64,000 nt of DNA, from NCBI GenBank assembly GCA_045603585.1, contig JAZUMK010000013.1, positions 45,914 to 109,913 on the forward strand, in the 5' to 3' direction. Below, piece after piece: positions 804 through 38,328 of the stretch (positions are counted from its first letter, which is position 1; the number at the start of each line of letters is the position of its first letter). The translations under genes and the position numbers were made by a program. Source of the DNA: Clostridia bacterium (GTDB taxonomy: Bacteria; Bacillota; Clostridia; Christensenellales; CAG-138). The notes under the pieces are model-generated. The model did no database searches, was not told the origin of the DNA, and was given only the letters and a program-made list of their open reading frames with translations.

Positions 804-831
804 TATACCTATGAACTATTTCATAGGTATA
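804..831. promoter_or_regulatory. Perfect 12-bp inverted repeat just upstream of the spoIIIAA RBS
   Basis: TATACCTATGAA (804-815), a 4-nt spacer, then TTCATAGGTATA (820-831). The GGAGGA RBS follows at about 840. Confidence 0.4.
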
Positions 832-852
832 TATAGAAACGGAGGACAAGGT

Positions 853-1695
853 ATGGAGCGGAGCTGTCTTAATGTACTGCCAAGGGGAATAAAAGAGCGG
901 GTAAGCGAGCTGCTCAGGCAGGATGATGAGGAAATCAGAATATCGGCAGACAGGCCGGTCCTGATTATGGGGCAAAGCAGGAGAAAGCTGGATATCATCA
1001 CCACGGCAAAAGACTGCGAGGACCTGCTGGAACTTATATGCGGTCATTCCGTATTTGCCCATGAGGAGGAGCTGAAGGGTGGGTATATCACCCTTGAAGA
1101 TGGCTCCCGCGTAGGTATGGCGGGGAAAATGACAGCGGCAGGCATGACCATGCCCCATAGCTTTAATATACGTATCGCCAGACAGGTAAATGGAGCGGCG
1201 GATGGTTTTTTAAGGCACATTCTGCAGGGCGGACTGCATAGTGCGCTGCTGGTATCAGAGCCAGGGGCCGGTAAAACAACGGTGCTGAGAGATACGGCGA
1301 GACAGCTTTCGGGATTGGGATATAAGGTGGGAATAGCGGATGAGCGGGGGGAAATATCAGCCCCGGTAAAAGGCATACCGGAGCTTGACGTGGGATACGG
1401 AGACGTGATATGCGGCTGCGGCAAGGCGGTGGGCATGACAATGCTGATACGGGGGATGTCGCCGGAGGTACTGATAACCGACGAGATAGCGGCCGATGAG
1501 GACGCAGCCGCGATATTGGATGCATCTGCATGCGGAGTAAAGGTTATAGCCAGCGCCCATGGCAGCGGCAGCGGCATACTTAAAAGGCCGGGCATAAGCA
1601 GAGCGATACAGGAAGGCGCATTTGAGAAGATCCTGCTGCTGAAAGCAGAGTATGGCAGCAGAAGCATATCTGACATAACCGGGGAGGTATTATGA
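853..1695 (+). CDS. spoIIIAA: Stage III sporulation protein AA (ATPase)
   Basis: Walker A motif EPGAGKTTVLRD, first gene of an eight-gene spoIIIA-ordered operon. GGAGGA RBS precedes ATG 853. Confidence 0.9.
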   Translation: MERSCLNVLPRGIKERVSELLRQDDEEIRISADRPVLIMGQSRRKLDIITTAKDCEDLLELICGHSVFAHEEELKGGYITLEDGSRVGMAGKMTAAGMTMPHSFNIRIARQVNGAADGFLRHILQGGLHSALLVSEPGAGKTTVLRDTARQLSGLGYKVGIADERGEISAPVKGIPELDVGYGDVICGCGKAVGMTMLIRGMSPEVLITDEIAADEDAAAILDASACGVKVIASAHGSGSGILKRPGISRAIQEGAFEKILLLKAEYGSRSISDITGEVL

Positions 1696-2192
1696 GGATA
1701 ATGGGAGGATTGGCGGCCTTTATAATATGCATGCTTATGGGCTGGGGCAAGGCTTCGGCTTTTAAGATGAGGGAAGATATCATGTTTGCCTTTTCCGCAG
1801 ATATACAGGCATTGGCCGTGGAAATGGAATACCGCCCCCGCAATATAAAGGACATGGTGTGCATGCTTGAACAAAGCAGCCTGAATGAATTCTGGCGGAT
1901 GTTTTCCGATGGGATAGATGCTTCCCAAAGCGCGGAACAGGCATGGCGGCATGCAGTGCAGGAGTATAAGGGATTTGATGTGCTGAATAACGATGAACGT
2001 TTGCTTATAGCGGAGGCGGGCCGCCTGATGGGACGGCAGAATATGCAGGACTGTATAAGCTCATTGAAACAGCGAAGCATTGAGGCGGCAAAGCGGGCGG
2101 AAAGGATAAATTGCGAATGTGCAGGCAAGGGAATGATATACCGCAGGCTGGGCCTGCTGGGGGGGCTTGCCGTTATGCTGCTGATTGTATAG
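1692..2192 (+). CDS. spoIIIAB: Stage III sporulation protein AB
   Basis: Operon position, ~166 aa, N-terminal TM segment, and an ATGA start/stop overlap with spoIIIAA. Confidence 0.85.
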   Translation: MRIMGGLAAFIICMLMGWGKASAFKMREDIMFAFSADIQALAVEMEYRPRNIKDMVCMLEQSSLNEFWRMFSDGIDASQSAEQAWRHAVQEYKGFDVLNNDERLLIAEAGRLMGRQNMQDCISSLKQRSIEAAKRAERINCECAGKGMIYRRLGLLGGLAVMLLIV

Positions 2193-2202
2193 GAGGATGG
2201 GG

Positions 2203-2400
2203 ATGGATATTGAACTGGTATTGCGTATTGCAGGCATAGGAATATTGGTAGCCGTGATATGCCAGCTGCTTAAACAGACAGGGCGGGATGACATTGCAAT
2301 GCTTGCTGCCCTTGCCGCATTGGTACTTACTCTGAGCCTTGTGGTTGGAGAAATAGGGCAGCTGCTTGATCAGGTAAAGCGCATATTCGGGCTTTACTGA
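2203..2400 (+). CDS. spoIIIAC: Stage III sporulation protein AC
   Basis: Small two-TM protein MDIELVLRIAGIGILVAVICQLLKQTGRDD... typical of SpoIIIAC. AGGAGG RBS lies upstream. Confidence 0.85.
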   Translation: MDIELVLRIAGIGILVAVICQLLKQTGRDDIAMLAALAALVLTLSLVVGEIGQLLDQVKRIFGLY

Positions 2401-2795
2401 TGGAAACAGATATGCTGAAGCTTTCGGCTGTTGCGATTATCGCTCTGTGTGCCGTGCTGATACTGAGAAAGTATCGGGAGGAGCTTGCCATGCAGGTTGG
2501 CCTTGCTGCGGGAATAGTTATACTGTCAATGGCGGTAAAAACCGCAGGGGAAATATCCTCAATGGCCAACGGCATGATGGAAAGATACGGATTGGATCCT
2601 TTGGGGATGAAATCAGTAGCAAAGATGATCGGCATTGCGTATATAGCTCAGTTCAGCGCGGATACGTGCAGGGATTGCGGAGAAAGCTCTCTTGCAGGGA
2701 AGGTGGAGCTGGCAGGCAGATTGATGATGGTCACGGCGGCAATTCCCCTGATAACATCCACCGTGGAAGCAATAGGAGGGCTTATGGGACAATGA
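2400..2795 (+). CDS. spoIIIAD: Stage III sporulation protein AD
   Basis: 131-aa multi-TM protein in the SpoIIIAD position. Its start overlaps the spoIIIAC stop. Confidence 0.85.
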   Translation: METDMLKLSAVAIIALCAVLILRKYREELAMQVGLAAGIVILSMAVKTAGEISSMANGMMERYGLDPLGMKSVAKMIGIAYIAQFSADTCRDCGESSLAGKVELAGRLMMVTAAIPLITSTVEAIGGLMGQ

Positions 2796-3904
2796 AATGG
2801 ACAATATTGCTGCTGATGCTCATTTTGCTGCCGGGTATTGCAATGGCGGAGGAAGTGATAAGCGTACCGGCGGTGGAATACGATATAAGCCAATGGGAGC
2901 AGGCATGGCAGAATTTGCCGCTGGAGGTAAAAAGCTTGTTTGGCGGTATGTCAATAGGGCAGATACTGGAAAGCTATCGCAGCGGTGCAGCAGGAATAAT
3001 TGACGTACAGGGGATAAAAAAAGCGTTTTTATATGGTTTTAAAGAGGCCTTTGGAGCAATAGGGGCGCTGATTGGAGCGGCAATTATCATGGGATTGCTG
3101 GATATAATAATTGGCGGCAAAGAGGGGATAGGGGAAATGCTGCTGTTTTGTATAATGGGGCTTTGCATATCATCCATTACAAAGGCGGTATACAGCCAAT
3201 TTTCACAGGCTGCGGAAACCGTGAACGGAATATCCAGAATAACCGAGATGACCTCACCTGTGATGATGACACTTGTGGCTGCCTGCGGCTCTGCAAAGAC
3301 AGCCGCATCCTTGCCCGGGATAATATTGCTATGCAACGCCATAACAAATGGATTTAAAAAACTGGTTATGCCGCTGATACCAATAATGTGCGGGTTTACG
3401 GCGGCATCCTGTATAACAGGACAGGGACAGCTGAAAGCCATGGCAGATCTGTTGAAAAGCGTGATTAAATGGAGCATGGGAATGGCATTTGCGTTTTTTC
3501 TGGGGTCGGTCAGCATACGCAGCCTTAATGCATCCGGGCTGGACAGGGCGGGAATCAAAGCGATAAAGTACGCATTTGACAAATCCGTTCCTGTGGTGGG
3601 CGGTATGATATCCGGGACCTACGACGGTCTGCTGGCGGGGGCGGTGGTTTTAAAGAACGCGGCCGGCACCGCAGCGGTAATTTTGCTGATATTGTCTGCG
3701 CTGACTCCCGGGATAGCAATGCTGTCCACCATATTTGCGCTGAAGATCACCGGGGCGGTTTGCGGACTGTTTTCGGATAAGCGGATATCCGGAATGCTGG
3801 AAGGAGCTGCGGAAAGCTGTACATATATGTTTGCGGTTGCGGCAACGGCGGCGCTGATGAATCTTATAACCATATCCGCAACGCTTATTGCATCGGGGAT
3901 ATAA
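2792..3904 (+). CDS. spoIIIAE: Stage III sporulation protein AE
   Basis: MKWTILLLMLILLPGIAMA signal sequence followed by a polytopic membrane domain. ATG 2792 overlaps the spoIIIAD stop. The upstream part of track ORF 2447..3904 is an out-of-gene extension. Confidence 0.85.
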   Translation: MKWTILLLMLILLPGIAMAEEVISVPAVEYDISQWEQAWQNLPLEVKSLFGGMSIGQILESYRSGAAGIIDVQGIKKAFLYGFKEAFGAIGALIGAAIIMGLLDIIIGGKEGIGEMLLFCIMGLCISSITKAVYSQFSQAAETVNGISRITEMTSPVMMTLVAACGSAKTAASLPGIILLCNAITNGFKKLVMPLIPIMCGFTAASCITGQGQLKAMADLLKSVIKWSMGMAFAFFLGSVSIRSLNASGLDRAGIKAIKYAFDKSVPVVGGMISGTYDGLLAGAVVLKNAAGTAAVILLILSALTPGIAMLSTIFALKITGAVCGLFSDKRISGMLEGAAESCTYMFAVAATAALMNLITISATLIASGI

Positions 3905-3906
3905 GC

Positions 3907-4080
3907 ATGGATACCATAAACAATACTGCGATAAAAATAGTTGCGCTTTTTTCATGGGTCTGCATATTAAAGCTTATGCTGCCGGTCGGCACGATGAAGC
4001 GCAGCGCGGCAAAAGCTGTGGACATAGCAGCTATGCTGTCCCTCATAAGAATAATATCGGGAGTACTGCCAAATGGCTGA
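3907..4080 (+). CDS. spoIIIAF: Very short SpoIIIAF-like membrane protein (57 aa)
   Basis: Below the track's apparent ~60-aa size floor, so absent from it. Translation MDTINNTAIKIVALFSWVCILKLMLPVGTMKRSAAKAVDIAAMLSLIRIISGVLPNG* resembles the SpoIIIAF N-terminal TM region and occupies the AF slot. Confidence 0.55.
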   Translation: MDTINNTAIKIVALFSWVCILKLMLPVGTMKRSAAKAVDIAAMLSLIRIISGVLPNG

Positions 4081-4633
4081 AGAGAGAAGAAAACCAATAA
4101 TAGAAAAATTAGCGCTGAAGCTCAAGCAAAACAAAAAGCTGGAGCTTGGGGTTTACGGCGGTCTTGCGCTGCTTTGCCTGCTGCTTTGCATACCGGAGCG
4201 GAATGAAAGAAACGAGGCTGAGCTTCAGCCTGCGGCAGCCGCAGCGGAGGAGGATGAGCTGGAGCGGCGGCTGATGGATACGCTCAGCTGCGTGCGGGGA
4301 GCGGGCAGGGTAAAGGTGATGATAACCTACGATACCGGCACGGAAATCGTACCTGCCATGAATACCGATGTAACCTCCAGCGTAAGCGTATCCGGAGAAA
4401 ATCAGACGCTTACCGAGTCATCCTCTCCGATTACTGCTTATCAAGATGGAGAAAATCAGGCAATAGTTCTTATGGAAAAGCAGCCTGTGGTAAGGGGCGT
4501 TATTGTTGTGGCGCAGGGAGCCGCGGATATATCCGTAAGGCTGAAGCTTCAGGCTGCGGTGCAGGCAGTATTGGGAGTAGAGGCTGATAAGGTGGAGGTT
4601 TTGGAAATGGGAATGCAGGAAATGGAGGATTGA
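4073..4633 (+). CDS. spoIIIAG: Stage III sporulation protein AG
   Basis: N-terminal TM segment, acidic linker, and the C-terminal ...VVRGVIVVAQGAADISVRLKLQAAVQAVLGVEADKVEV typical of SpoIIIAG. Confidence 0.85.
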   Translation: MAEERRKPIIEKLALKLKQNKKLELGVYGGLALLCLLLCIPERNERNEAELQPAAAAAEEDELERRLMDTLSCVRGAGRVKVMITYDTGTEIVPAMNTDVTSSVSVSGENQTLTESSSPITAYQDGENQAIVLMEKQPVVRGVIVVAQGAADISVRLKLQAAVQAVLGVEADKVEVLEMGMQEMED

Positions 4634-4637
4634 CAAA

Positions 4638-5141
4638 ATGAAGCTTATCAAAAAGTATCTGGTGCTGGCGGTTGTGGCGGTGCTGTTTGCCGGGGCTTTT
4701 GTGCTGAACATTATGGCAAACGGAGACAGTACTGAAAGTGAAGCCGATGTATTTGAGGAAGCTATGGCTGAGGATGCAGAGCAGACCGTACCCGCAGATT
4801 ACTTTGAAACCTTTCGCAAGGACAGGGAGGAGGTAAGAAAGCTGGAGATGGAATACCTTGACGAGGTGATTGCCGCATCCGCTTCGGATCAGGAGACCCT
4901 TGGAGATGCGCAAAAGCAAAAGCTTGCATTGGTGGATAATATGGAGAAGGAATTTACCATAGAAAGCATGATAAAGGCCAAGGGCTTTGAGGATGCGGCG
5001 GTAACCTTCCATTCGGGAACGGTAAACGTGGTAGTAAAGTGCAGCGAGCTTAATGAGGGTCAGGTGGCCCAGATATTGGATATCGTCAAAAAGGAAACGG
5101 GGGAGCCGGCCAGGAATATCAAGGTTATGGCAGGACAATAA
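4638..5141 (+). CDS. spoIIIAH: Stage III sporulation protein AH
   Basis: N-terminal TM segment, YFETFRKDREE... region, last gene of the operon. Confidence 0.85.
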   Translation: MKLIKKYLVLAVVAVLFAGAFVLNIMANGDSTESEADVFEEAMAEDAEQTVPADYFETFRKDREEVRKLEMEYLDEVIAASASDQETLGDAQKQKLALVDNMEKEFTIESMIKAKGFEDAAVTFHSGTVNVVVKCSELNEGQVAQILDIVKKETGEPARNIKVMAGQ

Positions 5142-10190: not shown

Positions 10191-10442
10191 ATGGATGAAG
10201 ATATGCTGCAGCGCATTGGCAGGGCAGCCAAGATAATAATTACCGTGGAGGATGGCCTGGCCAGCGGAGGAATGGGCAGCAAAATTACAGAGCGTTTTTC
10301 GGGCAGAGTAAAGGTTATCCGTATAGGCATCGGAGAGGATCCCGTGCAGCAGGCCTCTCCAAAGGAGCAGGATGTATTCTGCGGTATGGATGAAGAAAGC
10401 ATTAAAAGGGTGATAAGCCTTGCGATGGAGGAAGTTAAATGA
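10191..10442 (+). pseudogene. dxs: Remnant of 1-deoxy-D-xylulose-5-phosphate synthase: only the last ~80 codons remain
   Basis: The 83-aa ORF ...IIITVEDGLASGGMGSKITERF...VIRIGIGEDPVQQASPKEQDVFCGMDEESIKRVI matches the extreme C-terminus of Dxs and sits in the dxs slot between ispA and tlyA. No SD sequence is present. Confidence 0.75.
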
Positions 10443-12714: not shown

Positions 12715-14412
12715 ATGCTAAACAGGTTATCCATAAAAAACGTCGCTCTGATAGAGCGGCTGAATATTGAATTTGATGATGGATTTAACGTGCTGACCGG
12801 TGAAACCGGCGCCGGAAAATCCATTATTATTGATGCGGTAAATCTTGTTCTTGGCGAGCGCGCCAGCAAGGAACTTATTAAAAGCGGCGCAGAAAAGGCA
12901 TCGGTTGAGGCGGAGTTTGATATTGCCCGCATACCGGCCGTTAAGCGCATGCTGGAAGAAAACGAACTGGATGGGGATGACAGCCTTTTTATATCCCGCG
13001 ACCTTTCTGTTTCCGGCAAAAACGTATGCCGCATAAACGGCACCCTTGTAAATCTTGCGACCCTCAAGCAGATAACAGACCTGCTTGTGGATGTGCATGG
13101 TCAGCATGAGCATCAATCGCTGCTCAGCCAGAATAAGCATATAAACTTTCTGGATTCCTTTGACCATGAGGCAATCGACGGCATCAGGGCAAATGTTCGT
13201 GAGCTTTACAGCGAATACCGCAGGGTGAAGGACGCTATGCTCAGCGGCTTTTCCTCAGAGGATGAGCGGGCCAGAGAGATGGATATATTGCGCTATCAGA
13301 TCGGGGAAATCCAAAAGGCGGGATTGTCCTGCGACGAAGAAGCTGCTCTCAGTGAAGAAAAAGACGTTTTGATGAACGCAGAGCGTATTATGGCGGCGCT
13401 TCAGGAAAGCTGCGAAGCCATAATGGGAGACAACGGTGCCGTTGACCTTATGAAATCCGCATCCGGCAGTATGGATGGAATTTCCTGCTTTTCCGCAGAA
13501 TATTCCGATGCAGCCAAACGCCTGGAAGAGGCATTCTATGCCGTTCAGGATATGGGCTACGTCATAAGGGATATGAGAAACTCCTTTGAGTTTGACCCTG
13601 CACGTATAGACGAAATACAGCAGCGGCTGGAAGTGTATTCTGCAATTAAGAAAAAGTATGGCCCCGATATAGAGGATGTGAACAGCTTCCTTGAAAAGGC
13701 TCAGCTTCGCCTCGAAGAGCTGGATAATGCGGCTCAAATGCGGGAAACACTGGAAAAAGAGCTGAACCGGATAAGCACAAAGTACATTGAGGCCGCATCA
13801 ACCCTTACTGCTGCGCGAAAAAGTGCCGCCGGGGAGCTTGCAAAGGAGCTTCTGTTGCAGCTAAAAGACCTTGGCATGGAAAAGGCCCGCTTTGATGTTG
13901 GCTTTGAAAGAATTGAAACATTCGGCGCAAACGGCATGGATAAGGTGGAATTTATGATGTCTGCCAATCCCGGCGAAGCGCTCAAGCCATTGGAAAAGGT
14001 GGCATCCGGCGGTGAAATGTCCCGAATCATGCTGGCGTTTAAAGCCATTGCTGCCAGAGCAGATTCCATTCCCACGCTGATATTCGATGAAATCGATACA
14101 GGCATAAGCGGCCGCATCGCTTCTGTGGTGGGCGGGAAAATGGTAAATATTTCGGACTCACATCAGGTGCTGTGCGTTACTCATCTGCCCCAGATCGCGG
14201 CTCTTGCAGACGCCCACTTTATGGTGGAAAAGAGCGACGATGGAGAGCATACCAAAACGGATATGCGAAGGCTGTCCCTTGAGGAGCGGTATGAATATCT
14301 TGCCCGCATGATGGACGGCGCTCAGAGTTCTTCCTTTGCCTATGACCATGCAAAAGAGCTTATTTCTGCATCTGAGGCGGATAAGGCCAAGCGAAGAAAG
14401 CAAAATTCATAG
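12715..14412 (+). CDS. recN: DNA repair protein RecN
   Basis: GETGAGKSIIIDA Walker A motif, coiled-coil middle region, ASGGEMSRIMLA signature, LIFDEIDTGISG. Confidence 0.95.
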   Translation: MLNRLSIKNVALIERLNIEFDDGFNVLTGETGAGKSIIIDAVNLVLGERASKELIKSGAEKASVEAEFDIARIPAVKRMLEENELDGDDSLFISRDLSVSGKNVCRINGTLVNLATLKQITDLLVDVHGQHEHQSLLSQNKHINFLDSFDHEAIDGIRANVRELYSEYRRVKDAMLSGFSSEDERAREMDILRYQIGEIQKAGLSCDEEAALSEEKDVLMNAERIMAALQESCEAIMGDNGAVDLMKSASGSMDGISCFSAEYSDAAKRLEEAFYAVQDMGYVIRDMRNSFEFDPARIDEIQQRLEVYSAIKKKYGPDIEDVNSFLEKAQLRLEELDNAAQMRETLEKELNRISTKYIEAASTLTAARKSAAGELAKELLLQLKDLGMEKARFDVGFERIETFGANGMDKVEFMMSANPGEALKPLEKVASGGEMSRIMLAFKAIAARADSIPTLIFDEIDTGISGRIASVVGGKMVNISDSHQVLCVTHLPQIAALADAHFMVEKSDDGEHTKTDMRRLSLEERYEYLARMMDGAQSSSFAYDHAKELISASEADKAKRRKQNS

Positions 14413-14443: not shown

Positions 14444-14480
14444 CACTGTGGGCTTAGTCCACGGTGTTTTATTTTGTTTT
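14444..14480 (+). terminator. Rho-independent terminator after recN
   Basis: Stem CACTGTGG / CCACGGTG (one G-U pair) followed by TTTTATTTTGTTTT. Confidence 0.6.
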
Positions 14481-14493
14481 AAGGCGGATGTAT

Positions 14494-15714
14494 ATGAAAG
14501 AAAGAATGAAAAGCAGATATACAAGATGCATGGGCGTAATGCTGTGCATCGGATTGCTGTGCTTTAATTCAGGGGAGCAGATGAGCTATATCCGCAGCCT
14601 GCCGGATAAATTAACGCTGCAGCAGCTGGAGGAGCTAAAGGAGTGTGCGGATGGCCCCATTGGGCTGAGAGCTGGAGAAAGCCAACAAGTGGCAGGGGAT
14701 ATGTCTGAAAATTTATCAGACAATACCGTCAATGTCACATTGATGGGCATCCCAATCAGGCAGATGGTGGTATCTGCAAACAGCGATTTACGCCTTATGC
14801 CGGGCGGGGTGCCCATAGGCGTTTCAATATATACGGACGGAGTATTGGTGGTAGGCCTGGGCAGCGTAAAGGAAATGGAAAATATTTGCCCTGCTGCAGA
14901 TGGGGGGATAAAGGCAGGGGACGTGATAGTTTCGGTAAATGGAGAAGAGCTTGAGGATTCGCTGCATTTGAGCAGATTATGTTCGGCAGGCGGAGAGCTT
15001 AATATGACAATACGGCGGAATAATCAAATATCTTATCATACCGTGACACCAATATACGATGATGAGGCTGAGGCTTATCTTGCAGGAATGTGGGTCAGGG
15101 ACAGTACATCAGGCATTGGCACGCTGTCATATTGGGATATGCAAAGCGGGCGGTACGGTGCGCTGGGGCATCCCATTACGGATTCGGATACAGGCTCAGT
15201 AATAGACGTAAAGGATGGCAGCGTAATAAAATCCAACATTATCGGGGTATCTGCCGGTTCAAACGGTTCGCCGGGTGAAGTGATAGGCTCTTTTTCCTCC
15301 AACGGAGAAAAGTGGGGGGATATAGATATAAATTGCGAATTCGGCATTTACGGTGATGCTTCCGGCATGCCCGATAATCCCATTTATCCGGATGGCCTGC
15401 CAATCGGAAGGGCGGAGGAGGTTTACATAGGAGAGGCGGAAATACTCTGCACCGTAACGGATGGCGGGATTTCTGCATATGAGTGTGAAATTGTAAAGCT
15501 GTTTCCAAAGGACGAATCCGGCAGCAAGGGCATTGTGCTGAAGGTCACATCTTCGGAGCTTATCCAAATAACCGGCGGAATTGTGCAGGGCATGAGCGGC
15601 AGTCCGATTATTCAGGACGGCAAACTGGTGGGAGCGGTGACCCATGTGCTGGTGAATGATCCGACCAGAGGGTATGGGATTTTTATAGAAAATATGCTAG
15701 ATGCAGCAGGGTAA
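14494..15714 (+). CDS. spoIVB: SpoIVB peptidase (S55)
   Basis: PDZ-like [25 protein letters not shown] (His) and [37 protein letters not shown] (Ser). ATG 14494 (or 14488) follows the recN terminator. Confidence 0.9.
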   Translation: [406 protein letters not shown]

Positions 15715-15853: not shown

Positions 15854-16393
15854 ATGAGTTTTTCAGAAAATCTAAAACAAATCAGAAAAGAACATCATCT
15901 GTCTCAGGAAGAATTGGCGGAACTGCTGGATGTAAGCCGACAGGCTGTTTCAAAATGGGAGCAGGGACAGGGATATCCGGAAGTGGAAAAATTGCTGGTA
16001 CTGTCTTCTCAATTAAACATTTCGTTGGATGCGCTTATGTCCAATGAGATCGGCTGCGATCGTGGCTCAAAAGGTACAAACGTAACGGGCTCAATTGTTA
16101 TTACTTCTCCTCATGAGAACGTGATTGCAACCTGTTACAAGGTAGCTGCATCCGGCAAAATGCGTGGCGGAAAAAATTCTCCGCAGTATATATTGTTCGG
16201 TGTTGATCGAGGCGGTTCGAATTTCTGGGGAGAACCGACTACGTTTCTGGGGTGGTATGCCAGCGAAGAACAGATCTCAAAAGAAATTGCAGAAATTTAT
16301 AGAGCGATTTCGCAGGGGGTTCCAACTTATACACTGCAATTTAGCGCAAAGACTCAGCGCCGTTGGGCAAGTGTAAAGATAGTTGAAGAATGA
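15854..16393 (+). CDS. XRE-family HTH transcriptional regulator with an uncharacterised C-terminal domain
   Basis: N-terminus LKQIRKEHHLSQEELAELLDVSRQAVSKWEQGQGYPEVEKLLVLSSQLNISLDALM. The gene looks AT-richer than its flanks. Confidence 0.85.
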   Translation: MSFSENLKQIRKEHHLSQEELAELLDVSRQAVSKWEQGQGYPEVEKLLVLSSQLNISLDALMSNEIGCDRGSKGTNVTGSIVITSPHENVIATCYKVAASGKMRGGKNSPQYILFGVDRGGSNFWGEPTTFLGWYASEEQISKEIAEIYRAISQGVPTYTLQFSAKTQRRWASVKIVEE

Positions 16394-16427
16394 CTAAAAC
16401 TGTTGTCCCTAATGACAATCATCCGTG

Positions 16428-16535
16428 TCGGGCTCACCCATCATTTAGAATGGGAAACTGGTGGGTGCCGTTACTCACGTGCTGGTGAATGATCCGACGA
16501 GAGGGTATGGGATTTATATTGAAAATATGCTTTAG
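16428..16535 (+). pseudogene. Orphan, decayed copy of the spoIVB 3' end
   Basis: Translates as [34 protein letters not shown], collinear with codons at 15595-15699 of the intact gene (~80% nt identity by hand alignment). It has an internal TAG. Confidence 0.8.
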
Positions 16536-16553
16536 GCAACGGGGGGGATGATT

Positions 16554-16583
16554 TTGCAGGGAAGGTTTGCCCCTGCAATTTTC
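16554..16583 (+). terminator. Terminator following the spoIVB remnant, related to the one at 15719-15749
   Basis: Stem TTGCAGGG / CCCTGCAA followed by TTTT. It shares the GCAGGG...CCCTGC core with the spoIVB terminator. Confidence 0.6.
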
Positions 16584-16650
16584 CATGTTTGTATGATACA
16601 ATAGTATTGCTTGATTATTGTATTTAGAGGACAAAACAGGAGCGCTGCCT

Positions 16651-17292
16651 ATGAAAATATTGGTAACAGGCTTTGAGCCGTTTGACGGAGAAAAGATAAA
16701 TCCTTCACAGCAAATTGTACACCGTCTGGTAGCACCGGAAGGTACAAGCCTTATAAAGGCAATTTTGCCGGTGGAATTTACAGGGGCTGCCGCGCAGTTG
16801 TGCACGCTGCTTGGGGGGCATAATCCGGATGCGGTGCTGTCCATTGGCCAGGCAGGAGGGCGTGCGGAAATCAGCATTGAGCGCGTTGCCATCAATATAG
16901 ACTGTGTAAAAAGTTCTGACGGCAGCGACCTGCTGCCGGATAATGCGGGGAATATGCCCGTTGATAAACCTATTGAATTGGATGGCCCGGCGGCATATTT
17001 TACAACGCTGCCCATGTGGGAGATAGTGGAAGCTATACGGCAAAACGGTATACCTGCTGCTGTTTCCAATTCTGCAGGTACATTTGTCTGCAATCATGTT
17101 ATGTATGTTAGCCTGCATCAGGCTGCTGTGCATTACCCAAGCATGAAGGCAGGTTTTATCCATGTGCCATTTTTACCTGAACAAATTATTAATAAAGATG
17201 AGCGGCATAGGCCGGCGGCCATGTCCATTGACGATATGGTTTCGGCATTGCAAACAGCACTGGAAGTGTTGGCAAAGGGCTGGGAAAAGTGA
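16651..17292 (+). CDS. pcp: Pyroglutamyl-peptidase I (pyrrolidone-carboxylate peptidase)
   Basis: MKILVTGFEPFDGEKINPS..., ...SNSAGTFVCNHVMY (Cys nucleophile), ...GFIHVP. Confidence 0.9.
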   Translation: MKILVTGFEPFDGEKINPSQQIVHRLVAPEGTSLIKAILPVEFTGAAAQLCTLLGGHNPDAVLSIGQAGGRAEISIERVAINIDCVKSSDGSDLLPDNAGNMPVDKPIELDGPAAYFTTLPMWEIVEAIRQNGIPAAVSNSAGTFVCNHVMYVSLHQAAVHYPSMKAGFIHVPFLPEQIINKDERHRPAAMSIDDMVSALQTALEVLAKGWEK

Positions 17293-17392
17293 CGATACAA
17301 ATCAAAGCAGGAGTGCTTGCTTCTGCTTTTTTGGTTGCATATGCTATCATATATAAAGGATCACATTGAAATGCTACAAACAGAGGCGTTCC

Positions 17393-18007
17393 ATGATAGA
17401 TAAGGAAAATATATGGGATAAGCTATTAAAAGTAAAAACAACCGGCCGGGATGATTCCAACTCCGACCAGTACCGTTATCCCTATGAGCCAACGCCGTAC
17501 AGCGTTTTGGAGCGATTGGCCAACAGCGGTTTTATCGGCAAAAAAGATGTGGTACTGGACTATGGCTGCGGCAAGGGACGCGTAGATTTTTTTCTGTCCT
17601 ATCAGACCAAAGCGGCTGCCGTGGGAATTGAATACGACGAACGGATTTACAGCAGCGCCACAGAAAATCAGAAGACTGCCCTTTCCAGAACAAGGACGAA
17701 ATTTGTGCTTGCGAGAGCGGAAGCGTATGAAGTGCCCGAGCAAGTGAACAGATTTTATTTCTTCAATCCCTTTTCTGTGGAGATACTGCATAAGGTCATT
17801 GCGAGAATACTTGATTCCTATTATGAAAATCCAAGGGAGGCCTTCTTGTTCTTCTATTATCCATCCGAGGAGTATGTTTCGTATCTGATGACAGTGGATG
17901 AACTGGAATTTTACGAAGAGATACCTTGCGGCGATTTATTCCAGGGGGATGACCCGAGGGAAAGGATCTTGATTTTTTTATTGCCTTATAAGAATGATGT
18001 ATCCTGA
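17393..18007 (+). CDS. Class I SAM-dependent methyltransferase
   Basis: VVLDYGCGKGRVDFFL motif I. AGAGG RBS precedes ATG 17393. Confidence 0.7.
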   Translation: MIDKENIWDKLLKVKTTGRDDSNSDQYRYPYEPTPYSVLERLANSGFIGKKDVVLDYGCGKGRVDFFLSYQTKAAAVGIEYDERIYSSATENQKTALSRTRTKFVLARAEAYEVPEQVNRFYFFNPFSVEILHKVIARILDSYYENPREAFLFFYYPSEEYVSYLMTVDELEFYEEIPCGDLFQGDDPRERILIFLLPYKNDVS

Positions 18008-18034
18008 AAGAAGTGTAAATAATACGGCAATATA

Positions 18035-18066
18035 AAAGGCAGGGGATAATCCCTGCCTTTGGTTTT
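18035..18066. terminator. Bidirectional terminator between convergent genes
   Basis: 10-bp perfect stem AAAGGCAGGG / CCCTGCCTTT with A/T-rich runs on both sides. Confidence 0.75.
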
Positions 18067-18072
18067 AAACGT

Positions 18073-19056
18073 TTATTGCAGCGGCTGCACCTTCAAAAGG
18101 GCTGCCTTTGTTTTTTCATCTGCAAAGGAGGCTTCTATGGCATAGTTGTTCATCCGTACGATATCTTCATCCGTAAAGCCCATTCTGCGGCAAAGGTCGT
18201 ATTCCTTTTCAAGGTCGGTATCCAGCACCGTAAGGTTGTCGGTATTTACCGTGACACGTGCGCCTTTTTTATACAGCACATACAATGGGTGTGTCTGGTC
18301 GCAGGAGAGACCGTATTCGTAGGAAAGGCTGCTGTCGGGACACATTTCCAGCGTTACTTTGCGGGCGATCACCTGCTGGGTCAAGGCGGGGTCAAGAGCG
18401 GCCTGATAGCCGTGGCCTATGCGGGAGGTGCCGTATTTAAGGGCTTCGCCAACGGTGAATTCACTGTGGGTTGTGGCGGGGATGCCAAGGAAGCGGGCCA
18501 GCTCAAAAATATCTGCAAATTCGGGCATGCGTTCCTCATAGCCGGCCATATCCACAGCGCAAACGCCCTTGCCGAGATATTTGGCGGCAAGGCGTACGGT
18601 TTCCATGTTTTCCGCGTGATTTTCGGCAGGGTCGCAATGGTTCATGGCGCATAGAATCAGCCCGGCTTTCAGTGCGGCGCAGTTATGCAAGCCTTCGTTA
18701 AGCCCCTGAATGGCGGCCAATACAGCATCTTCCTGTGTCATGCCGCCATTTAGATGGTATTGAGGGGCAAAGCGCAGCTCGGCATAGATCAATCCTTCTT
18801 TATCCAGCCGCTCCACCAGCTCCCGGGTGATACGGCAAATTCCTTCGGGAGTCTGCATCACCCTGAGGGGAGGATCGAATGTAAGAAAATCCGGATCGTA
18901 CTCACCCTCGGGAATTGTCATGGAGTGCCGTATTTCATCAAGCGACATATCACATTCCGGATGAATATTGTATTTGCGTGCAAGCTCAAAAACCGTCTCA
19001 GGCTTTGCGGAGCCGTCAATATGCAGATGTAGATCTGTTTTATTGAGTATTTTCAT
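18073..19056 (-). CDS. add: Adenosine deaminase family protein
   Basis: DLHLHIDGS metal-binding start, ...GHGY..., ...VTVNTDN... motifs. 327 aa. Confidence 0.85.
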   Translation of the reverse strand: MKILNKTDLHLHIDGSAKPETVFELARKYNIHPECDMSLDEIRHSMTIPEGEYDPDFLTFDPPLRVMQTPEGICRITRELVERLDKEGLIYAELRFAPQYHLNGGMTQEDAVLAAIQGLNEGLHNCAALKAGLILCAMNHCDPAENHAENMETVRLAAKYLGKGVCAVDMAGYEERMPEFADIFELARFLGIPATTHSEFTVGEALKYGTSRIGHGYQAALDPALTQQVIARKVTLEMCPDSSLSYEYGLSCDQTHPLYVLYKKGARVTVNTDNLTVLDTDLEKEYDLCRRMGFTDEDIVRMNNYAIEASFADEKTKAALLKVQPLQ

Positions 19057-19209
19057 AATTTATCCTCCCAGTATGGGTATATAACAATTATACAACAGGG
19101 GAGCATTTTACCCAAGGCAGATAATTAACAAATGGCCTTTTTTACTATACAAGTAAATATCTGTTTGATAATATAGATATCATCAGGCAAATCTATTAAG
19201 GTAAAAAAC

Positions 19210-19971
19210 ATGGGAAAGATAAAACGAAACAGCATCATCAAAAGAATAATAATCATGACTGCATTTGCGGCATTGATCAGTGTATTTTCCGGATGCGGTA
19301 GCAATACCTGTCGGGTGGATTATTGCGGCCAGGAAGCGCTTTACAGAGGTCATAAAGAACGGTATGAGCCGGGTGAGCAGGTTGAGTTTTATTATAAGCG
19401 CAGCGATTCGGACGGGGAGTATACCTTCTTTCTGGGCGAAAAACAGATTGTTCCGGTGCCGTACAGTGAAGATGAAGATATTATATGGTTTGTAATGCCG
19501 GATAAAGAGGTTAAGCTTGAGCGGGTCAAAAACAGCGAAATAAAGGCGGAGCATATGGTTGGGCGCGATATTCTGCTGGTGAATTATTATAGGGAAACCG
19601 TGGCTGCCGCAGATGGGGACGGCTATTTTGAGATGGTGCTCAGCACGACAGAAGAGGCAGATAAAGCCGCGCTCAATGTATATCGCAAAGACGAGGGAGA
19701 GGATGAAACCTGCAGAAGCTATATAGTCCCCTTTGAAGCTGTTGAGAGGTGCTATCAGGCAATTATAGAGAGCGATATGCGGGGATGGAATGAGCTAGAA
19801 AACTCAATTAGTGCTGACGGAGCATTGACGGTATGCAAATTCAGGTTTGGCGATACTGTGCTGCGTATCACATCGGAATCCATGCCTGCGGATGGAGAGG
19901 CTGCCCTGGATAATATCAGGGAGATAATGTCTGGATATATGCAGGATGCGTATTTTGCAGGCGAATGGTAA
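19210..19971 (+). CDS. Hypothetical lipoprotein
   Basis: Signal peptide with lipobox ...LISVFSGC. No recognisable domain. Confidence 0.6.
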   Translation: MGKIKRNSIIKRIIIMTAFAALISVFSGCGSNTCRVDYCGQEALYRGHKERYEPGEQVEFYYKRSDSDGEYTFFLGEKQIVPVPYSEDEDIIWFVMPDKEVKLERVKNSEIKAEHMVGRDILLVNYYRETVAAADGDGYFEMVLSTTEEADKAALNVYRKDEGEDETCRSYIVPFEAVERCYQAIIESDMRGWNELENSISADGALTVCKFRFGDTVLRITSESMPADGEAALDNIREIMSGYMQDAYFAGEW

Positions 19972-20010
19972 TAAGTTTATAACTCAAGCAAGAGGGACGG
20001 AGCAAAAGCT

Positions 20011-20742
20011 ATGAAAAAGCTGTATAAAAAAGAACCCATATGGTTTGCGGTATTGTGGATAGTTATATATGTGGTATGCTTCAGCGCGGCGGATGGAATA
20101 TCCGAAAGCATGGGCATGCCCAAACTCATTACGGCATTGGTTGGATTGCTGCTGTCCATCATGCTTATCGGATTTATCAGGCGGGAAGGCCTGACGGAGC
20201 ATTTTGGTCTGTGCGGGTTTAAGGGAAACAAAAGGGACTTTCTCTTTTTTATTCCGTTGATAGTTATTTCTTCGGTTAATCTGTGGAATGGGCTGCAGCT
20301 TCAGTGTTCTGCGACTGAAGCGGCATTGGGCGTAATCAGTATGTGCTTTGTGGCGATCCTGGAGGAAGTTATCTTCCGCGGATTGCTTTTTAAAGGCATG
20401 AGCGAGGATAACCTGAAGATCGCGGTTATTGTTTCATCACTTACATTCGGCTTCGGGCATATAGTAAATCTGCTGCTGGGTGAGCCGATATTTGAAACGC
20501 TGCTGCAGCTCGTTTATGCTTCTGCCGTTGGTTTTTGCTTTACTGCGGTATTTATTGCCGGAGGCAGCGTTATACCCTGTATCCTTTCTCATGCAGCGGT
20601 AAATTGTTTCAGTATTTTTGCGGTTCAGCCTTCTGACGGAGGGATTGTGCTTATAGCGGCTGTGCAGACAGTTGTCAGCACACTGTACGGCGTATGGCTG
20701 CTGAAAAGGCACAGCGCTGCAAATAAGCAAACTTCAGCATAA
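20011..20742 (+). CDS. CPBP-family intramembrane glutamic endopeptidase (CAAX protease/Abi-like)
   Basis: Motifs AILEEVIFRGLLF and FGFGH.... Confidence 0.8.
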   Translation: MKKLYKKEPIWFAVLWIVIYVVCFSAADGISESMGMPKLITALVGLLLSIMLIGFIRREGLTEHFGLCGFKGNKRDFLFFIPLIVISSVNLWNGLQLQCSATEAALGVISMCFVAILEEVIFRGLLFKGMSEDNLKIAVIVSSLTFGFGHIVNLLLGEPIFETLLQLVYASAVGFCFTAVFIAGGSVIPCILSHAAVNCFSIFAVQPSDGGIVLIAAVQTVVSTLYGVWLLKRHSAANKQTSA

Positions 20743-20826
20743 TATGGCGGTTTGTCGCTTACAGTGGTATTATATAAAAAAATACAGCTTTTGCCGTTTC
20801 TGTATCAAACGTCAGCAAGGAGATAT

Positions 20827-21507
20827 ATGAAAAAGACGTTTTATTCGGAGATGGCTTATTTTATTGGCATAATCCTGCTTGCGCTGGGCACGGCAATGAT
20901 GGAGCAGGCGAATTTCGGCATGTCCATGGTGGTTGCACCGGCATATCTGCTTCATTTGAAGGTATCGGAAACATTCTCGTTTTTCTCATTCGGCATGGCG
21001 GAGTATGTATTGCAGGGCGTGCTGCTGATAATCATGTCGCTGGTATTGAGACGATTTAAAAAGGCCTATCTTTTTTCCTTTATTACCGCGGTATTTTACG
21101 GTTTTGCGCTGGATGCCATGCTGAGCCTGATGGGGTATGTGCAAAGCGACGGAATGGCGCTGAGGGTGTTTTTCTACATAGGGGGCATGATAGTATGCGC
21201 CATCGGTATAGCGATGCTGTTTCATACCTATATACCTCTTGAAGCATACGAGATGTTTGTTAAAGAGGTGTCCGCAAAAATAGGGATGGATATCAATAAA
21301 TTCAAAACCATTTACGATTGCACAAGCTGCGCCATAGCGGTAATAATGTCATTTGCGTTCTTTGGCTTTGGACAATTTGAAGGGGTAAAACTGGGCACCG
21401 TGCTGTGTGCATTGGTAAACGGATGGATGATAGGCCAATGCTCAAAACGGCTTGAGCAGCTGTTTGAGTTTACAGACGGCACAAAGCTGGCGGAATTTTT
21501 CAGGTAG
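20827..21507 (+). CDS. Polytopic membrane protein (YczE/DUF6198-like)
   Basis: MKKTFYSEMAYFIGIILLALGTAMMEQANFGMSMVVAPAY... AGGAGA RBS precedes ATG 20827. Confidence 0.55.
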   Translation: MKKTFYSEMAYFIGIILLALGTAMMEQANFGMSMVVAPAYLLHLKVSETFSFFSFGMAEYVLQGVLLIIMSLVLRRFKKAYLFSFITAVFYGFALDAMLSLMGYVQSDGMALRVFFYIGGMIVCAIGIAMLFHTYIPLEAYEMFVKEVSAKIGMDINKFKTIYDCTSCAIAVIMSFAFFGFGQFEGVKLGTVLCALVNGWMIGQCSKRLEQLFEFTDGTKLAEFFR

Positions 21508-21605
21508 CCGCATAAAAATTAACGTTCCGGTTGGAAAGAGATGGAAAAAGTGGTAAAATATATATGATGATAATCTGAATAAAAATGATAACGGAAGGGC
21601 TGCCT

Positions 21606-22376
21606 ATGAAAATTCTTATTGCAAAGGAACATAGCGCATACTGCCACGAGCTGGCAGACTATTTGGGCAAAATGTCAATATTTGATATTATGCCCTTTGC
21701 CCATGACGGATATCAGACAATACAGAATATCGCCATCGAAAAGCCCGACGTATTGCTGCTGGATGCGGTACTTCCCAATATGGATGGTATAGGCGTACTG
21801 AAAAAGCTGAATGCCATGAGATTATCAGAGGGAATACGTATACTGGTAATGGCTCCCTTCAAGGATGATGAAATGATAGATAAGCTGATGAGGCTTGGCG
21901 CACTGTACGTAATACAGCTTCCTGCGGTGCCTTCTCAGGTATTCAGCCGGATTGTGGATTTTGCCATAGATGACGATTTAGTCAGAAAAGAAGCAGAGGA
22001 AAGAAAAGAGAACAATCGTACAGAGCTGAGGGATAAGGTAATAACAAATTACTTTTATGCCATAAGAGCGCCTCTCAATCTCCTGGGATACAAACTGGCA
22101 AGGGCTGCGGTGACCTATTGCGTGGATAATTACAATGCTCAGCCATACATAACCAAAGAAGTATATCCCTTTGTTGCAGAGCTTTTTAATTCCACTCCAA
22201 AGCAGGTGGAACGAAATATCCGCACATTCATCGAAGCCACGTGGCAGCGGGGCGATATGGAAAACATAAACAAGCTTTTCGGATACTCCGTCAGCCAGCA
22301 TAAGGGACGTCCTACCAATAAAGAGTTTATCGCGTTGCTTACAGAGCGCAGCGTTATGCGCATCCGCCAAGGTTAG
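21606..22376 (+). CDS. spo0A: Spo0A-family sporulation regulator with an atypical receiver domain
   Basis: The C-terminal domain ITKEVYPFVAELFNSTPKQVERNIRTFIEATWQRGDMENINKLFGYSVSQHKGRPTNKEFIALL is a clear Spo0A_C domain. The N-terminal receiver fold keeps LLLDAVLPNMDG. Confidence 0.85.
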   Translation: MKILIAKEHSAYCHELADYLGKMSIFDIMPFAHDGYQTIQNIAIEKPDVLLLDAVLPNMDGIGVLKKLNAMRLSEGIRILVMAPFKDDEMIDKLMRLGALYVIQLPAVPSQVFSRIVDFAIDDDLVRKEAEERKENNRTELRDKVITNYFYAIRAPLNLLGYKLARAAVTYCVDNYNAQPYITKEVYPFVAELFNSTPKQVERNIRTFIEATWQRGDMENINKLFGYSVSQHKGRPTNKEFIALLTERSVMRIRQG

Positions 22377-22441: not shown

Positions 22442-22927
22442 ATGAAGGGCATAAAAAGCAGATGGTATATAGTGTGCTTTGCCGCCATAATGGGCTTTAC
22501 CGCCGGGGCGGCAACGGCATTGAATCCGGAATATCTGGAAGCGGCATTTAATGCAATGGGTGAAGTGCAGGGGAGCGTTCTGCTGAGCCTTGCGCTTTTG
22601 AGTATGCTGTGGAATACGGCTCTTTACAGCTTTTGCAGAATTTTTTCCGGTAAAGGCGGTATTGCGCTGTCTGTTTTTGCGGTGTGGCTTAAGGCTGTGC
22701 TGATGGGGCTTTTTTGCAGGGGGCTGTGGGCAAATATCAGGGGCATCAACGTATTGCTGATACTGCTTACGGTATTTGGCGGAGTTTGTATATGCCTTGG
22801 TATGATAATGGACAGGGAGGAAACGAAAGATAAACATAAAGCGCTTGCGGTTTGGCTTTGCGGAGTAACTGCTGAGGGGATAATCATTCCTTCCGCCGTA
22901 AGAACATGGGCGCTTATATTCAACTGA
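22442..22927 (+). CDS. Hypothetical membrane protein
   Basis: 161 aa with 4-5 hydrophobic segments. No motif recognised. Confidence 0.5.
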   Translation: MKGIKSRWYIVCFAAIMGFTAGAATALNPEYLEAAFNAMGEVQGSVLLSLALLSMLWNTALYSFCRIFSGKGGIALSVFAVWLKAVLMGLFCRGLWANIRGINVLLILLTVFGGVCICLGMIMDREETKDKHKALAVWLCGVTAEGIIIPSAVRTWALIFN

Positions 22928-27468: not shown

Positions 27469-28011
27469 ATGATCAGCGTGGCTCTTTATATTTTGTCTGC
27501 ATCCGCCCTGCTTTTATTGACAGGGGCAAGGATAAAATTCAGACTGCTTGTGGAATTGCGGCAGGCCCGGCTCAATGTTGAAGCGGGGATTTTTTTCGGT
27601 GCGCTGAAGCTGAAGGGAGATGCGGTGGCCTGCTGGTTTCCCTTTACGCTGTATGTGAACGGAAAACCACATTCCCTGCCCAAACGCAAGCAGAAAACAT
27701 CATTGCCGCGGCATATATGGAAGGGGACCGAATTCAGCAGGCTGAACATTTCTTCGTCGGTCGGCATAAAGGATGACGGAGCGGCAAGCGTGGTATTTTC
27801 GGGTATATTGCGGGAGGGATTGCGCGCTGCTGCGCAGCTTTTGGCTCCGCATGAGCTGTCTGTCGGTTCAACGCCCGTATTCAGCCATAATACTTTTTGG
27901 CTGGAATTGGAAGGCATAGCAAGGCTGCATCCTACGCAGATTATTTGTGCCGTCATACGGCAAAAAATATCCAAAATGCGGAAGGGGAAAGAGCATGACG
28001 CATCCTGTTGA
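27469..28011 (+). CDS. DUF2953/YtfI-like sporulation-associated protein
   Basis: N-terminal TM segment. Sits immediately upstream of and overlaps the ytfJ/gerW-like gene, as in other Firmicutes. Confidence 0.55.
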   Translation: MISVALYILSASALLLLTGARIKFRLLVELRQARLNVEAGIFFGALKLKGDAVACWFPFTLYVNGKPHSLPKRKQKTSLPRHIWKGTEFSRLNISSSVGIKDDGAASVVFSGILREGLRAAAQLLAPHELSVGSTPVFSHNTFWLELEGIARLHPTQIICAVIRQKISKMRKGKEHDASC

Positions 28012-28453
28012 AAACATAATGAAAACCACAATGGAACAGCTTAAAGCAATGGCGGATGTAAACACCATAGTGGGCAATCCCATACTTACGGCGGGGGAAA
28101 CCATGATATTGCCCGTATCAAAGCTGTCCATGGGATTTATATCCGGCGGCGGAGAATACGGCTCTGAGAAAAAGCTTACGCCCATACAAAGGAGCGCAGA
28201 GGAGATGAAGGAATACAGCAGCTATCCTTTTGCCGGGGCGGCTGTTGCCGGAATGACAATTACACCGCTGGCATTTTTGTCGGTAAATAACGGATGTGTA
28301 AAGGTTATGCCTGCGGATTATGATACGACCTTTGACAGGGCGGTGGAGATGCTTCCCGAGCTTATCGGCACCATGGAGCAGGCGCTGAAAAACAGCATAA
28401 AAAGCTGTAAATGCGGCGAAGAAGATGATTCGAAGAGCAGCAGTGACCAATGA
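27995..28453 (+). CDS. ytfJ: GerW/YtfJ-family sporulation protein
   Basis: MEQLKAMADVNTIVGNPILTAGETMILPVSKLSMGFISGGGEYG. Confidence 0.8.
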   Translation: MTHPVENIMKTTMEQLKAMADVNTIVGNPILTAGETMILPVSKLSMGFISGGGEYGSEKKLTPIQRSAEEMKEYSSYPFAGAAVAGMTITPLAFLSVNNGCVKVMPADYDTTFDRAVEMLPELIGTMEQALKNSIKSCKCGEEDDSKSSSDQ

Positions 28454-37303: not shown

Positions 37304-37446
37304 GCTTTCATTATAACATGTTGAGGTGCATATAACACAAAAAAAGTGAGAATAAACTGTTAATGTGAAGAATAGTTGCTGCTTTTTAATGGCAGCGGAC
37401 TGTGATATACTGTACGGGAACATTTAATGACTAAGGAGATACATTC

Positions 37447-38052: not shown

Positions 38053-38055
38053 TTT

Positions 38056-38328
38056 ATGGAGATAATTATTCTGGATGGAAAAAAGATGGTATCCTTTGAT
38101 GAACTGCATGATTACCTTAAAAAGATAATGCGGCTGCCTTCGTATTACGGCCGTAACCTGGATGCTCTGGCGGATTGTCTCAGCGAGCTGGGATCCCATG
38201 TAACGGTTATACTCAACAACGCTGATGCGATGAAGGCAGGCTTGGGAGTGTATGCGAACAGGCTGCTGACTGTTTTTTATGATATTTCATCCGAACCAAA
38301 CGGCTTTAACTTTGTAATCAGTGAATAA
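38056..38328 (+). CDS. Barstar-family ribonuclease inhibitor
   Basis: ...FDELHDYLKKIMRLPSYYGRNLDALADCLSEL matches barstar's ...[27 protein letters not shown]. Confidence 0.85.
   Translation: MEIIILDGKKMVSFDELHDYLKKIMRLPSYYGRNLDALADCLSELGSHVTVILNNADAMKAGLGVYANRLLTVFYDISSEPNGFNFVISE

Follow-up and report, generated by a model that had tools for sequence, protein, structure and literature searches.

Endospore formation is taken to have one universal trigger, the phosphorylation of Spo0A. In receiver domains, the D-D-D-T-K quintet of residues is needed for Mg2+ binding, phosphotransfer and the activation switch. How, then, does a Spo0A work in which four residues of this quintet have been replaced? 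The question is raised by a gene at positions 21606-22376 of a 64,000-nucleotide stretch of DNA from a Clostridia bacterium (GenBank assembly GCA_045603585.1, contig JAZUMK010000013.1, positions 45,914 to 109,913), which we call the window. An earlier reading of this DNA, the original prediction, had seen in the product a Spo0A with a degenerate phospho-acceptor pocket. It had offered two explanations: a pseudo-receiver that is not controlled by a canonical phosphorelay or orphan kinases, or a minor paralog of a canonical spo0A located elsewhere in the genome. We find that the gene occupies the ancestral place of spo0A, that a whole clade shares its altered pocket, and that the protein probably acts without being phosphorylated.

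Altered residues in the phosphorylation pocket

The window protein has the fusion of a receiver and a Spo0A_C domain that is characteristic of the Spo0A family. Both domains scored above the Pfam cutoffs, Response_reg with 48 bits over residues 3-113 and Spo0A_C with 104.2 bits (E = 4.5e-30, profile positions 1-102 of 104). The original prediction had called the C-terminal domain a textbook Spo0A_C domain. In phmmer searches against solved structures, this domain matched 1lq1 (E = 6e-22) and 1fc3 (about 1e-21), and the receiver matched the Spo0A receivers 1dz3, 9phz and 5wq0. The recognition helix reads QVERNIRTFIE, compared with RVERAIRHAIE in B. subtilis, and retains the E-R-x-I-R motif. Identity to B. 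subtilis Spo0A is about 25% in the receiver and about 41% in the C-terminal domain. The C-terminal part of the B. subtilis sequence used for numbering is consistent with the 1lq1 alignment, and the receiver calls made with it are consistent with the 1dz3 alignment. The NCBIfam equivalog model TIGR02875 gave 179.5 bits over positions 4-254 of 262, under its cutoff of 200, and a member of the same clade is labelled by NCBI only as 'Spo0A C-terminal domain-containing protein'.

In the phmmer alignment to 1dz3, which is free of gaps in the relevant parts, the pocket segments of the window protein and of 1dz3 pair as KILIAKEHSA/KVCIADDNRE, ILVMAPF/VIMLTAF and YVIQLP/YFILKP. This places K7, E8, D53, A83 and L105 at D10, D11, D56, T86 and K108 (B. 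subtilis numbering), and the calls were identical when over 200 homologs were aligned with MAFFT and hmmalign. The complete pocket of the Spo0A family (D10, D11, D56, T/S86 and K108) is absent here, with the acceptor Asp kept and an acidic residue at position 8. The original prediction had placed K-E at the acidic pair, Ala at the conserved Thr and Leu at the conserved Lys by hand; because the profile and multiple alignments agree, we regard that alignment as correct. Misalignment could be ruled out, since the profile alignments do not bring back the canonical residues. The earlier statement that the phosphorylatable Asp is the one residue retained also holds, with the nuance that position 8 is acidic (E or D) throughout the clade described below, so that one direct Mg2+ ligand may survive.

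A further loss concerns the aromatic switch, which precedes the Lys by three positions: the window protein has V102 there, and 95 of 135 relatives have F or Y. The change of the pocket is specific to this gene, because the full DD/D/T/K set is kept in an OmpR-type regulator encoded elsewhere in the window (38526-39218).

Conservation and selection

We use L-numbers for related loci and P-numbers for protein sequences or clusters, and call KE clade the window protein together with the relatives described next, which have Lys-Glu (or Lys-Asp) at positions 10-11. A word-indexed search returned 15 sequences 66-99% identical to the window protein, and all of them have K-E or K-D, Asp, Ser or Ala, and Leu in the pocket. 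A branch with 43% identity (P0016/17) has the pocket KEDSM. No member of the KE clade, this branch included, departs from K7 or D53, and the D-x-x-x-P-x-x-D-G loop is likewise invariant in the clade. The Thr position is occupied by Ser in 13 of 16 clade members, and Ala occurs only in the sub-branch of the window, P0001 and L001. In an exhaustive HMMER search of 1.8 billion representatives, the KE core came out as a single 50% cluster (P0011). With this survey of orthologs, the K-E/K-D pocket proves to be fixed, in at least 16 distinct sequences besides the 43% branch, in a clade of animal-gut 'Clostridia bacterium' metagenome-assembled genomes (MAGs), and chance or a sequence error is excluded as its cause.

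Between the window and L001 (dS about 0.8), the ratio of nonsynonymous to synonymous substitution rates (dN/dS) was 0.11 in the receiver and 0.06 in the C-terminal domain. The linker was much less constrained, with ratios of 0.17-0.77. Decay into a pseudogene was rejected on account of the ratio of about 0.1 and the intact frames across a deep clade. An AlphaFold2 model of the protein had a mean predicted local distance difference test (pLDDT) score of 86, with 80-96 in the blocks of the receiver, and the predicted receiver superposed on the Spo0A-N structures 1qmp and 5wq0 at 1.3-1.4 Å with template modelling (TM) scores of 0.85-0.92. The root-mean-square differences between these matches were trivial and do not tell an active from an inactive conformation. 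By model and alignments, the protein thus joins a kept fold to missing pocket residues, as atypical response regulators do.

A GGAAGGG ribosome-binding site lies 6 nt 5' of the start codon, and a consensus scan pointed to a putative sigma-70-type promoter upstream of it (Table 1). The hexamers and the TG of this element are invariant in five KE-core loci (the window and L001-L004), and the rest of the intergenic DNA diverges. Fixation in the clade, the low dN/dS, the regular fold and the invariant promoter together suggest that the gene is maintained and expressed and is not decaying.

The perfect 0A box TGTCGAA has no match on either strand of the window (3.9 expected from shuffled sequence), and the relaxed form TGNCGAA occurs 28 times against 31 expected, which is the level of chance; the classic Spo0A target operons are absent from the region scanned. 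The conserved spo0A promoter region holds no 0A box, a result uninformative on autoregulation. There is no histidine kinase within 15 kb on either side of spo0A, which makes it an orphan in a weak sense, as canonical spo0A is also an orphan. The sole histidine kinase in the window (39223-41163) is paired with its own OmpR-type regulator.

Genomic position of the gene

Read in order, the window carries spoIIIAA-AH, two asp23 genes, nusB, folD, xseA, ispA, a dxs remnant, tlyA, nadK, argR, recN and spoIVB, and then a 6-kb insert, spo0A, a membrane gene, deoB, dac, an M50 peptidase gene, scpA, scpB, ytfJ and again dac. We mapped this neighbourhood by tblastn over 36 loci from a species-representative genome collection and 7 metagenome contigs. 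The order nadK-argR-recN-spoIVB-spo0A-(membrane gene)-deoB-dac-scpAB was found in all of the approximately 40 related loci, whether their pocket was canonical or not. The window gene has spoIVB and recN upstream, as is typical of the Spo0A family. Because this classic neighbourhood is common to the related loci, the window gene is the positional ortholog of spo0A at its ancestral place.

A profile search of six-frame translations of the window and 44 loci, about 770 kb in all, found no second Spo0A_C region; each sequence had exactly one. The idea of a minor paralog, which was the alternative in the original prediction, is disfavoured by this count and by the ancestral position in about 40 loci.

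The KE core clade differs from its relatives in an insertion of 4-6 kb between spoIVB and spo0A (15854-21507 in the window). It encodes a helix-turn-helix regulator, a pyroglutamyl peptidase, a methyltransferase, an adenosine deaminase (on the minus strand), an unknown open reading frame (ORF), a CAAX protease and a DUF6198 protein. The other relatives all have a gap of only about 100 bp from the end of spoIVB to spo0A. The insertion separates spo0A from any read-through from spoIVB, and the gene would therefore rely on its own conserved promoter.

Graded change in related lineages

The related loci show the pocket in several states of erosion, given here as the residues at D10, D11, D56, T86 and K108. 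DDDSK is present at L007-L011 and L020, and DDDSM at L012-L015 and L024. NDDTM, HDDTL or NSDTM are found at L023-L032, and GDDSL and TDDSM at L005 and L006, which belong to 'Christensenellaceae bacterium' MAGs. The window clade has KEDS/A-L. Finally, P0033 (L040, 10001-10786) has KDNTS and P0059 (L042-L044, represented in the tree by L043) has KNGTS, in which the acceptor Asp has become Asn and Gly, respectively.

P0033 and P0059 were among the next best matches after the KE core, with K at position 10 and without K108. They are positional orthologs that lie between an intact spoIVB and deoB, in L040 also with ytfJ. By their flanking genes, L040 and L043 are the closest relatives of the KE core, with 63-67% identity to the window in recN and 86% in scpB; the values for L005 are 57% and 74%. 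Neighbour-joining trees of recN, spoIVB, argR and nadK (1375 columns, 200 bootstraps) grouped the KE core with L040 and L043 at 100%, with these and L005 at 82%, and with these, L005 and L006 at 86%. The clade of DDDSM and NDDTM loci was also supported at 100%. This grouping suggests that K at position 10 together with the loss of K108 was ancestral to a 'K10 clade', and that the Asp was lost later in one branch. With 1351 sequences in its 90% cluster, P0033 seems to come from an abundant organism.

Among the 150 nearest representatives, 135 align at all six pocket positions (the quintet and the aromatic switch). In this sample, which is biased to relatives of a divergent query and may hold paralogs, 70 have the canonical [DE]DD[ST]K, 14 are without the Asp and 25 without the Lys. 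K108 is missing from each of the five 50%-identity clusters that have gained Lys at position 10 or 11, but from only 20 of the 130 others, a coupling that represents only about two independent events. Losses at the same locus were found elsewhere: L033 (3771-4481) has a DS-G-A-K pocket with Gly for the Asp, K has changed to M in two separate clades, and D10 has changed to N, H, G or T. Since these losses occurred independently at several lineages, erosion of the Spo0A pocket in this order seems to be recurrent and not a single event.

The search also returned proteins of an architecture unusual for the family (P0034, P0036, P0041, P0072 and P0092), which are 390-450 aa long and match Spo0A_C three or four times in tandem, but have no receiver pocket that can be aligned.

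Explanations for the altered pocket

We consider it somewhat probable that the window protein is an atypical Spo0A ortholog independent of phosphorylation, comparable to WhiI of Streptomyces. According to this proposal, K7 would sit in the former metal site and pair with D53 and E8, like Lys13 in the constitutively active CheY D13K, and Mg2+-dependent phosphotransfer would be absent. The receiver would be kept as a dimerisation or regulatory module for the intact Spo0A_C domain, and activity would be set by the gene's own sigma-70-type promoter, by a protein partner or by both, instead of a phosphorelay or orphan kinases. Such a pairing would explain why K7 and D53 are invariant despite the lost Mg2+ chemistry, and the sisters without the Asp suggest that the K10 background can do without the acceptor. 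The residues, the gene order, the fixation in the clade, the purifying selection, the kept fold and the Asp-less sisters are observed; that phosphorylation is lost, that K7 and D53 form an ion pair and how the protein is controlled are inferred. In C. difficile Spo0A, each of the substitutions D10A, D11A, S86A and K108A, at the four positions that are altered in the window protein, causes a severe sporulation defect, and D10A significantly lowers dimerisation (10.1101/2022.02.07.479450). The pseudo-receiver of the original prediction is thus the best reading of the clade-fixed pocket, the purifying selection and the Asp-less sisters, with the reservation that E8, D53 and K7 could form a working site of a rewired kind.

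Several points weigh against independence from phosphorylation. D53 is strictly conserved, position 8 is acidic and Ser is mostly kept in the KE clade, which also fits phosphorylation through a rewired site. The K7-D53 contact is itself a prediction. dS was saturated for every pair except the window and L001. The search for copies covered the 64-kb window and the fetched loci, and a second canonical spo0A may exist elsewhere in the genome. Spore formation by the lineage is a prediction from its genes.

The most serious competitor, which we regard as possible but rather unlikely, is that the pocket has been rewired and D53 is still phosphorylated by kinases or acetyl phosphate, perhaps with altered kinetics. 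E8 and D53 would remain as metal ligands, and the positive charge would have changed places, as the beta5-alpha5 loop lost its Lys (K to L105) and the beta1-alpha1 loop gained one (D to K7). Because D10 and K108 are in contact in canonical receivers, the amino group of K7 could take the place of that of Lys108. The invariant D53 and loop, the acidic position 8, the frequent Ser, the coupling of Lys gain to K108 loss (within its few independent events) and the three acids kept by the DDDSM relatives would all be expected of such a site. However, the sisters with K10 and without K108 have lost the acceptor Asp and yet keep the gene and spoIVB, which suggests that D56 is dispensable in that background. 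The Thr and the aromatic switch are also gone in the window protein (A83 and V102), Lys is absent from both sites in L005 and L006, and in CheY D13K a Lys in the acidic pocket blocks phosphorylation.

We think it improbable that the gene is a divergent extra copy with a side role and that a canonical spo0A elsewhere runs sporulation. Such copies are not without precedent: in a survey of 118 Spo0A-positive genomes, two spo0A paralogs were counted in 10, all of them Clostridiales, and three in one genome, but the other 107 had a single copy (10.1101/2022.02.25.481979). The many Spo0A-like proteins with incomplete pockets in metagenomes and the TIGR02875 score under the cutoff also speak for an extra copy, and of the genome the search reached only the 64-kb window. 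Against this, the ancestral place between recN-spoIVB and deoB is held in every related locus, canonical or degenerate, and the loci searched hold no second Spo0A_C region. Moreover, no canonical Spo0A nearer than about 38% identity was found in the 1.8 billion representatives, and a recent duplicate would be nearer. Still more improbable, in our opinion, is a relic in a lineage that has given up sporulation, in which the pocket decays and the protein drifts or has been taken over for other regulation. Cultured Christensenella is described as non-spore-forming (PMC11536998), and Spo0A evolves faster than its flanks (between the window and L040, identity is 67% in recN, 33% in the receiver and 49% in the C-terminal domain). 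However, both domains are under purifying selection with the frame intact across a deep clade. The same holds for spoIVB, which encodes a protease used only in sporulation and has intact catalytic motifs, and the spoIIIA operon and ytfJ are intact as well.

Sporulation genes and other features of the window

The lineage consists of uncultured, animal-gut Clostridia, the nearest named relatives of which are Christensenellaceae MAGs. Although cultured Christensenella is reported as non-spore-forming, a potential to sporulate has been proposed for related MAGs (PMC11536998). SpoIVB keeps its Ser and His motifs (GMSGSP and GALGH) in the window, L002, L040 and L043, and the dN/dS of spoIVB was 0.09-0.17 within the clade (with dS saturated). 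The two ORFs at the place of spoIIIAF and spoIIIAG, between spoIIIAE and spoIIIAH (3888-4633, plus strand), have no Pfam match and are either very divergent or replaced.

The membrane protein gene directly 3' of spo0A has orthologs at the same place in the KE clade and in L038, L040, L005-L008 and L012-L013, for example at L038 2366-2875, L040 10865-11374, L005 10840-11397 and L007 10828-11433. The proteins have 160-210 aa, always follow spo0A in these lineages and share the end ...EG(I/V)(I/M)IP.... An assignment as SpoIIM was dropped, as neither the window protein nor four orthologs had a Pfam match even at E = 1.

Elsewhere in the window, dxs is reduced to a C-terminal remnant of 83 aa (10191-10442, plus strand) between ispA and tlyA, which matches residues 528-612 of the 612-aa product of the dxs gene that L040 has there. 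Either part of the gene was truly deleted, and the organism would then need a different DXP synthase or route, or the assembly is at fault. A protein of 1154 aa (33956-37423, minus strand) has four lamin-tail domains, a chitobiase/Fn3-associated domain and a C-terminal CotH kinase domain. Genes for a barnase-like ribonuclease and a barstar inhibitor stand side by side at 37447-38328 (plus strand).

Table 1. Coordinates in the window of spo0A, its parts and the neighbouring genes discussed in the text
Feature	Coordinates	Strand	Details
spo0A ortholog with remodelled receiver pocket	21606..22376	+	256 aa + stop
Receiver (REC) domain, residues 1-120, (beta-alpha)5 fold	21606..21965	+	Pfam PF00072
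Linker, residues 121-142, charged, fast-evolving	21966..22031	+	pLDDT 55-69
Spo0A_C DNA-binding/activation domain, residues 143-256	22032..22373	+	Pfam PF08769
Codons K7-E8 (aag gaa), place of the Mg2+-binding acidic pair D10-D11	21624..21629	+	alignments
Codon D53 (gat), phospho-acceptor Asp kept	21762..21764	+	alignments
Codon A83 (gct), Thr/Ser position	21852..21854	+	alignments
Codons V102-I-Q-L105, aromatic switch position (Val) and conserved Lys position (Leu)	21909..21920	+	alignments
Putative sigma-70-type promoter, extended -10, TTGGAA-17-TGgTAAAAT	21531..21559	+	consensus scan; about 47 nt upstream of the start codon
Multi-pass membrane protein directly 3' of spo0A	22442..22927	+	no Pfam match
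spoIVB, ancestral upstream neighbour of spo0A	14464..15714	+	Pfam S55, 266.7 bits; alignment to 9lnf
recN	12715..14412	+	member of the conserved nadK-argR-recN-spoIVB-spo0A synteny
spoIIIA operon (AA, AB, AC, AD, AE, two unassigned ORFs, AH)	811..5141	+	
ytfJ sporulation gene	27947..28453	+	Pfam Spore_YtfJ, 75.4 bits

Comparison with known regulators and implications

By architecture and synteny the window protein belongs with Spo0A, and it would work most like the atypical response regulators. It shares with canonical Spo0A (B. subtilis, G. stearothermophilus and C. difficile; 1QMP/1DZ3 and 1LQ1/1FC3) the two-domain architecture, the Spo0A_C domain with E-R-x-I-R, the acceptor Asp, the place after recN-spoIVB and, at 1.3-1.4 Å, the fold of the receiver. 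The differences lie in the substitutions of the pocket (K, E, A, V and L), which affect the aromatic switch and every quintet residue but the acceptor Asp. Divergent members of the family also occur among the spo0A paralogs of Clostridiales (10.1101/2022.02.25.481979). Those are extra copies beside a canonical gene; the window gene, in contrast, stands at the ancestral locus with no other copy in the loci searched.

The closest parallel is perhaps WhiI of Streptomyces, which is without the conserved Lys and one of the two adjacent Asp residues and probably needs no phosphorylation for its activity (PMC4125116). WhiI is an orphan that controls a sporulation programme, and in the window protein losses of this kind have likewise struck a master regulator of development. 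GlnR, JadR1 and BldM are further atypical response regulators with degenerate pockets. However, WhiI has a NarL-type output instead of Spo0A_C, belongs to another phylum with another kind of sporulation and acts as a heterodimer with BldM. The window protein also has a Lys gained inside the pocket. Compared with the aspartate-less receivers (ALR; PMC4395418), the window protein falls outside the definition because D53 is present; only its sisters P0033 (Asn) and P0059 (Gly) come under it, and they appear to show the direction in which the window lineage is heading.

CheY D13K, which is used as a phosphorylation-independent active form, also has a Lys among the active-site acids beside the acceptor Asp. 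In the window protein, however, the Lys is at the position of CheY D12 and not D13. Furthermore, CheY D13K is a laboratory mutant; the window protein is natural and has also lost the equivalents of K109 and Y106, and its state may or may not be 'on'.

In a literature search of partial coverage, we found no described Spo0A ortholog with a degenerate, Asp-less or phosphorylation-independent receiver. We suggest, as a tentative idea that may well prove wrong, that a gut-associated lineage of endospore-forming Clostridia, the 'K10 clade', starts sporulation with a non-phosphorylated Spo0A, and that one very abundant member does so without the acceptor Asp. The input from a phosphorelay or kinases, which is regarded as universal, would then be replaced by the level of expression, by a partner or by a ligand acting on a receiver locked by the Lys-Asp pair. 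If this is true, the decision to sporulate is made by another mechanism in these bacteria, and searches for kinases in them would be misdirected. Predictors that infer sporulation of gut MAGs from the presence of spo0A would also have to take the pocket into account. The series of states from DDDSK through DDDSM, N/G/T-DDS(M/L) and KEDS/A-L to KDNTS and KNGTS can be seen as a natural experiment in which the phospho-switch was dismantled and the regulator kept. It supplies concrete proteins for testing, and the outcome would surprise specialists in sporulation if the biochemistry bears it out.

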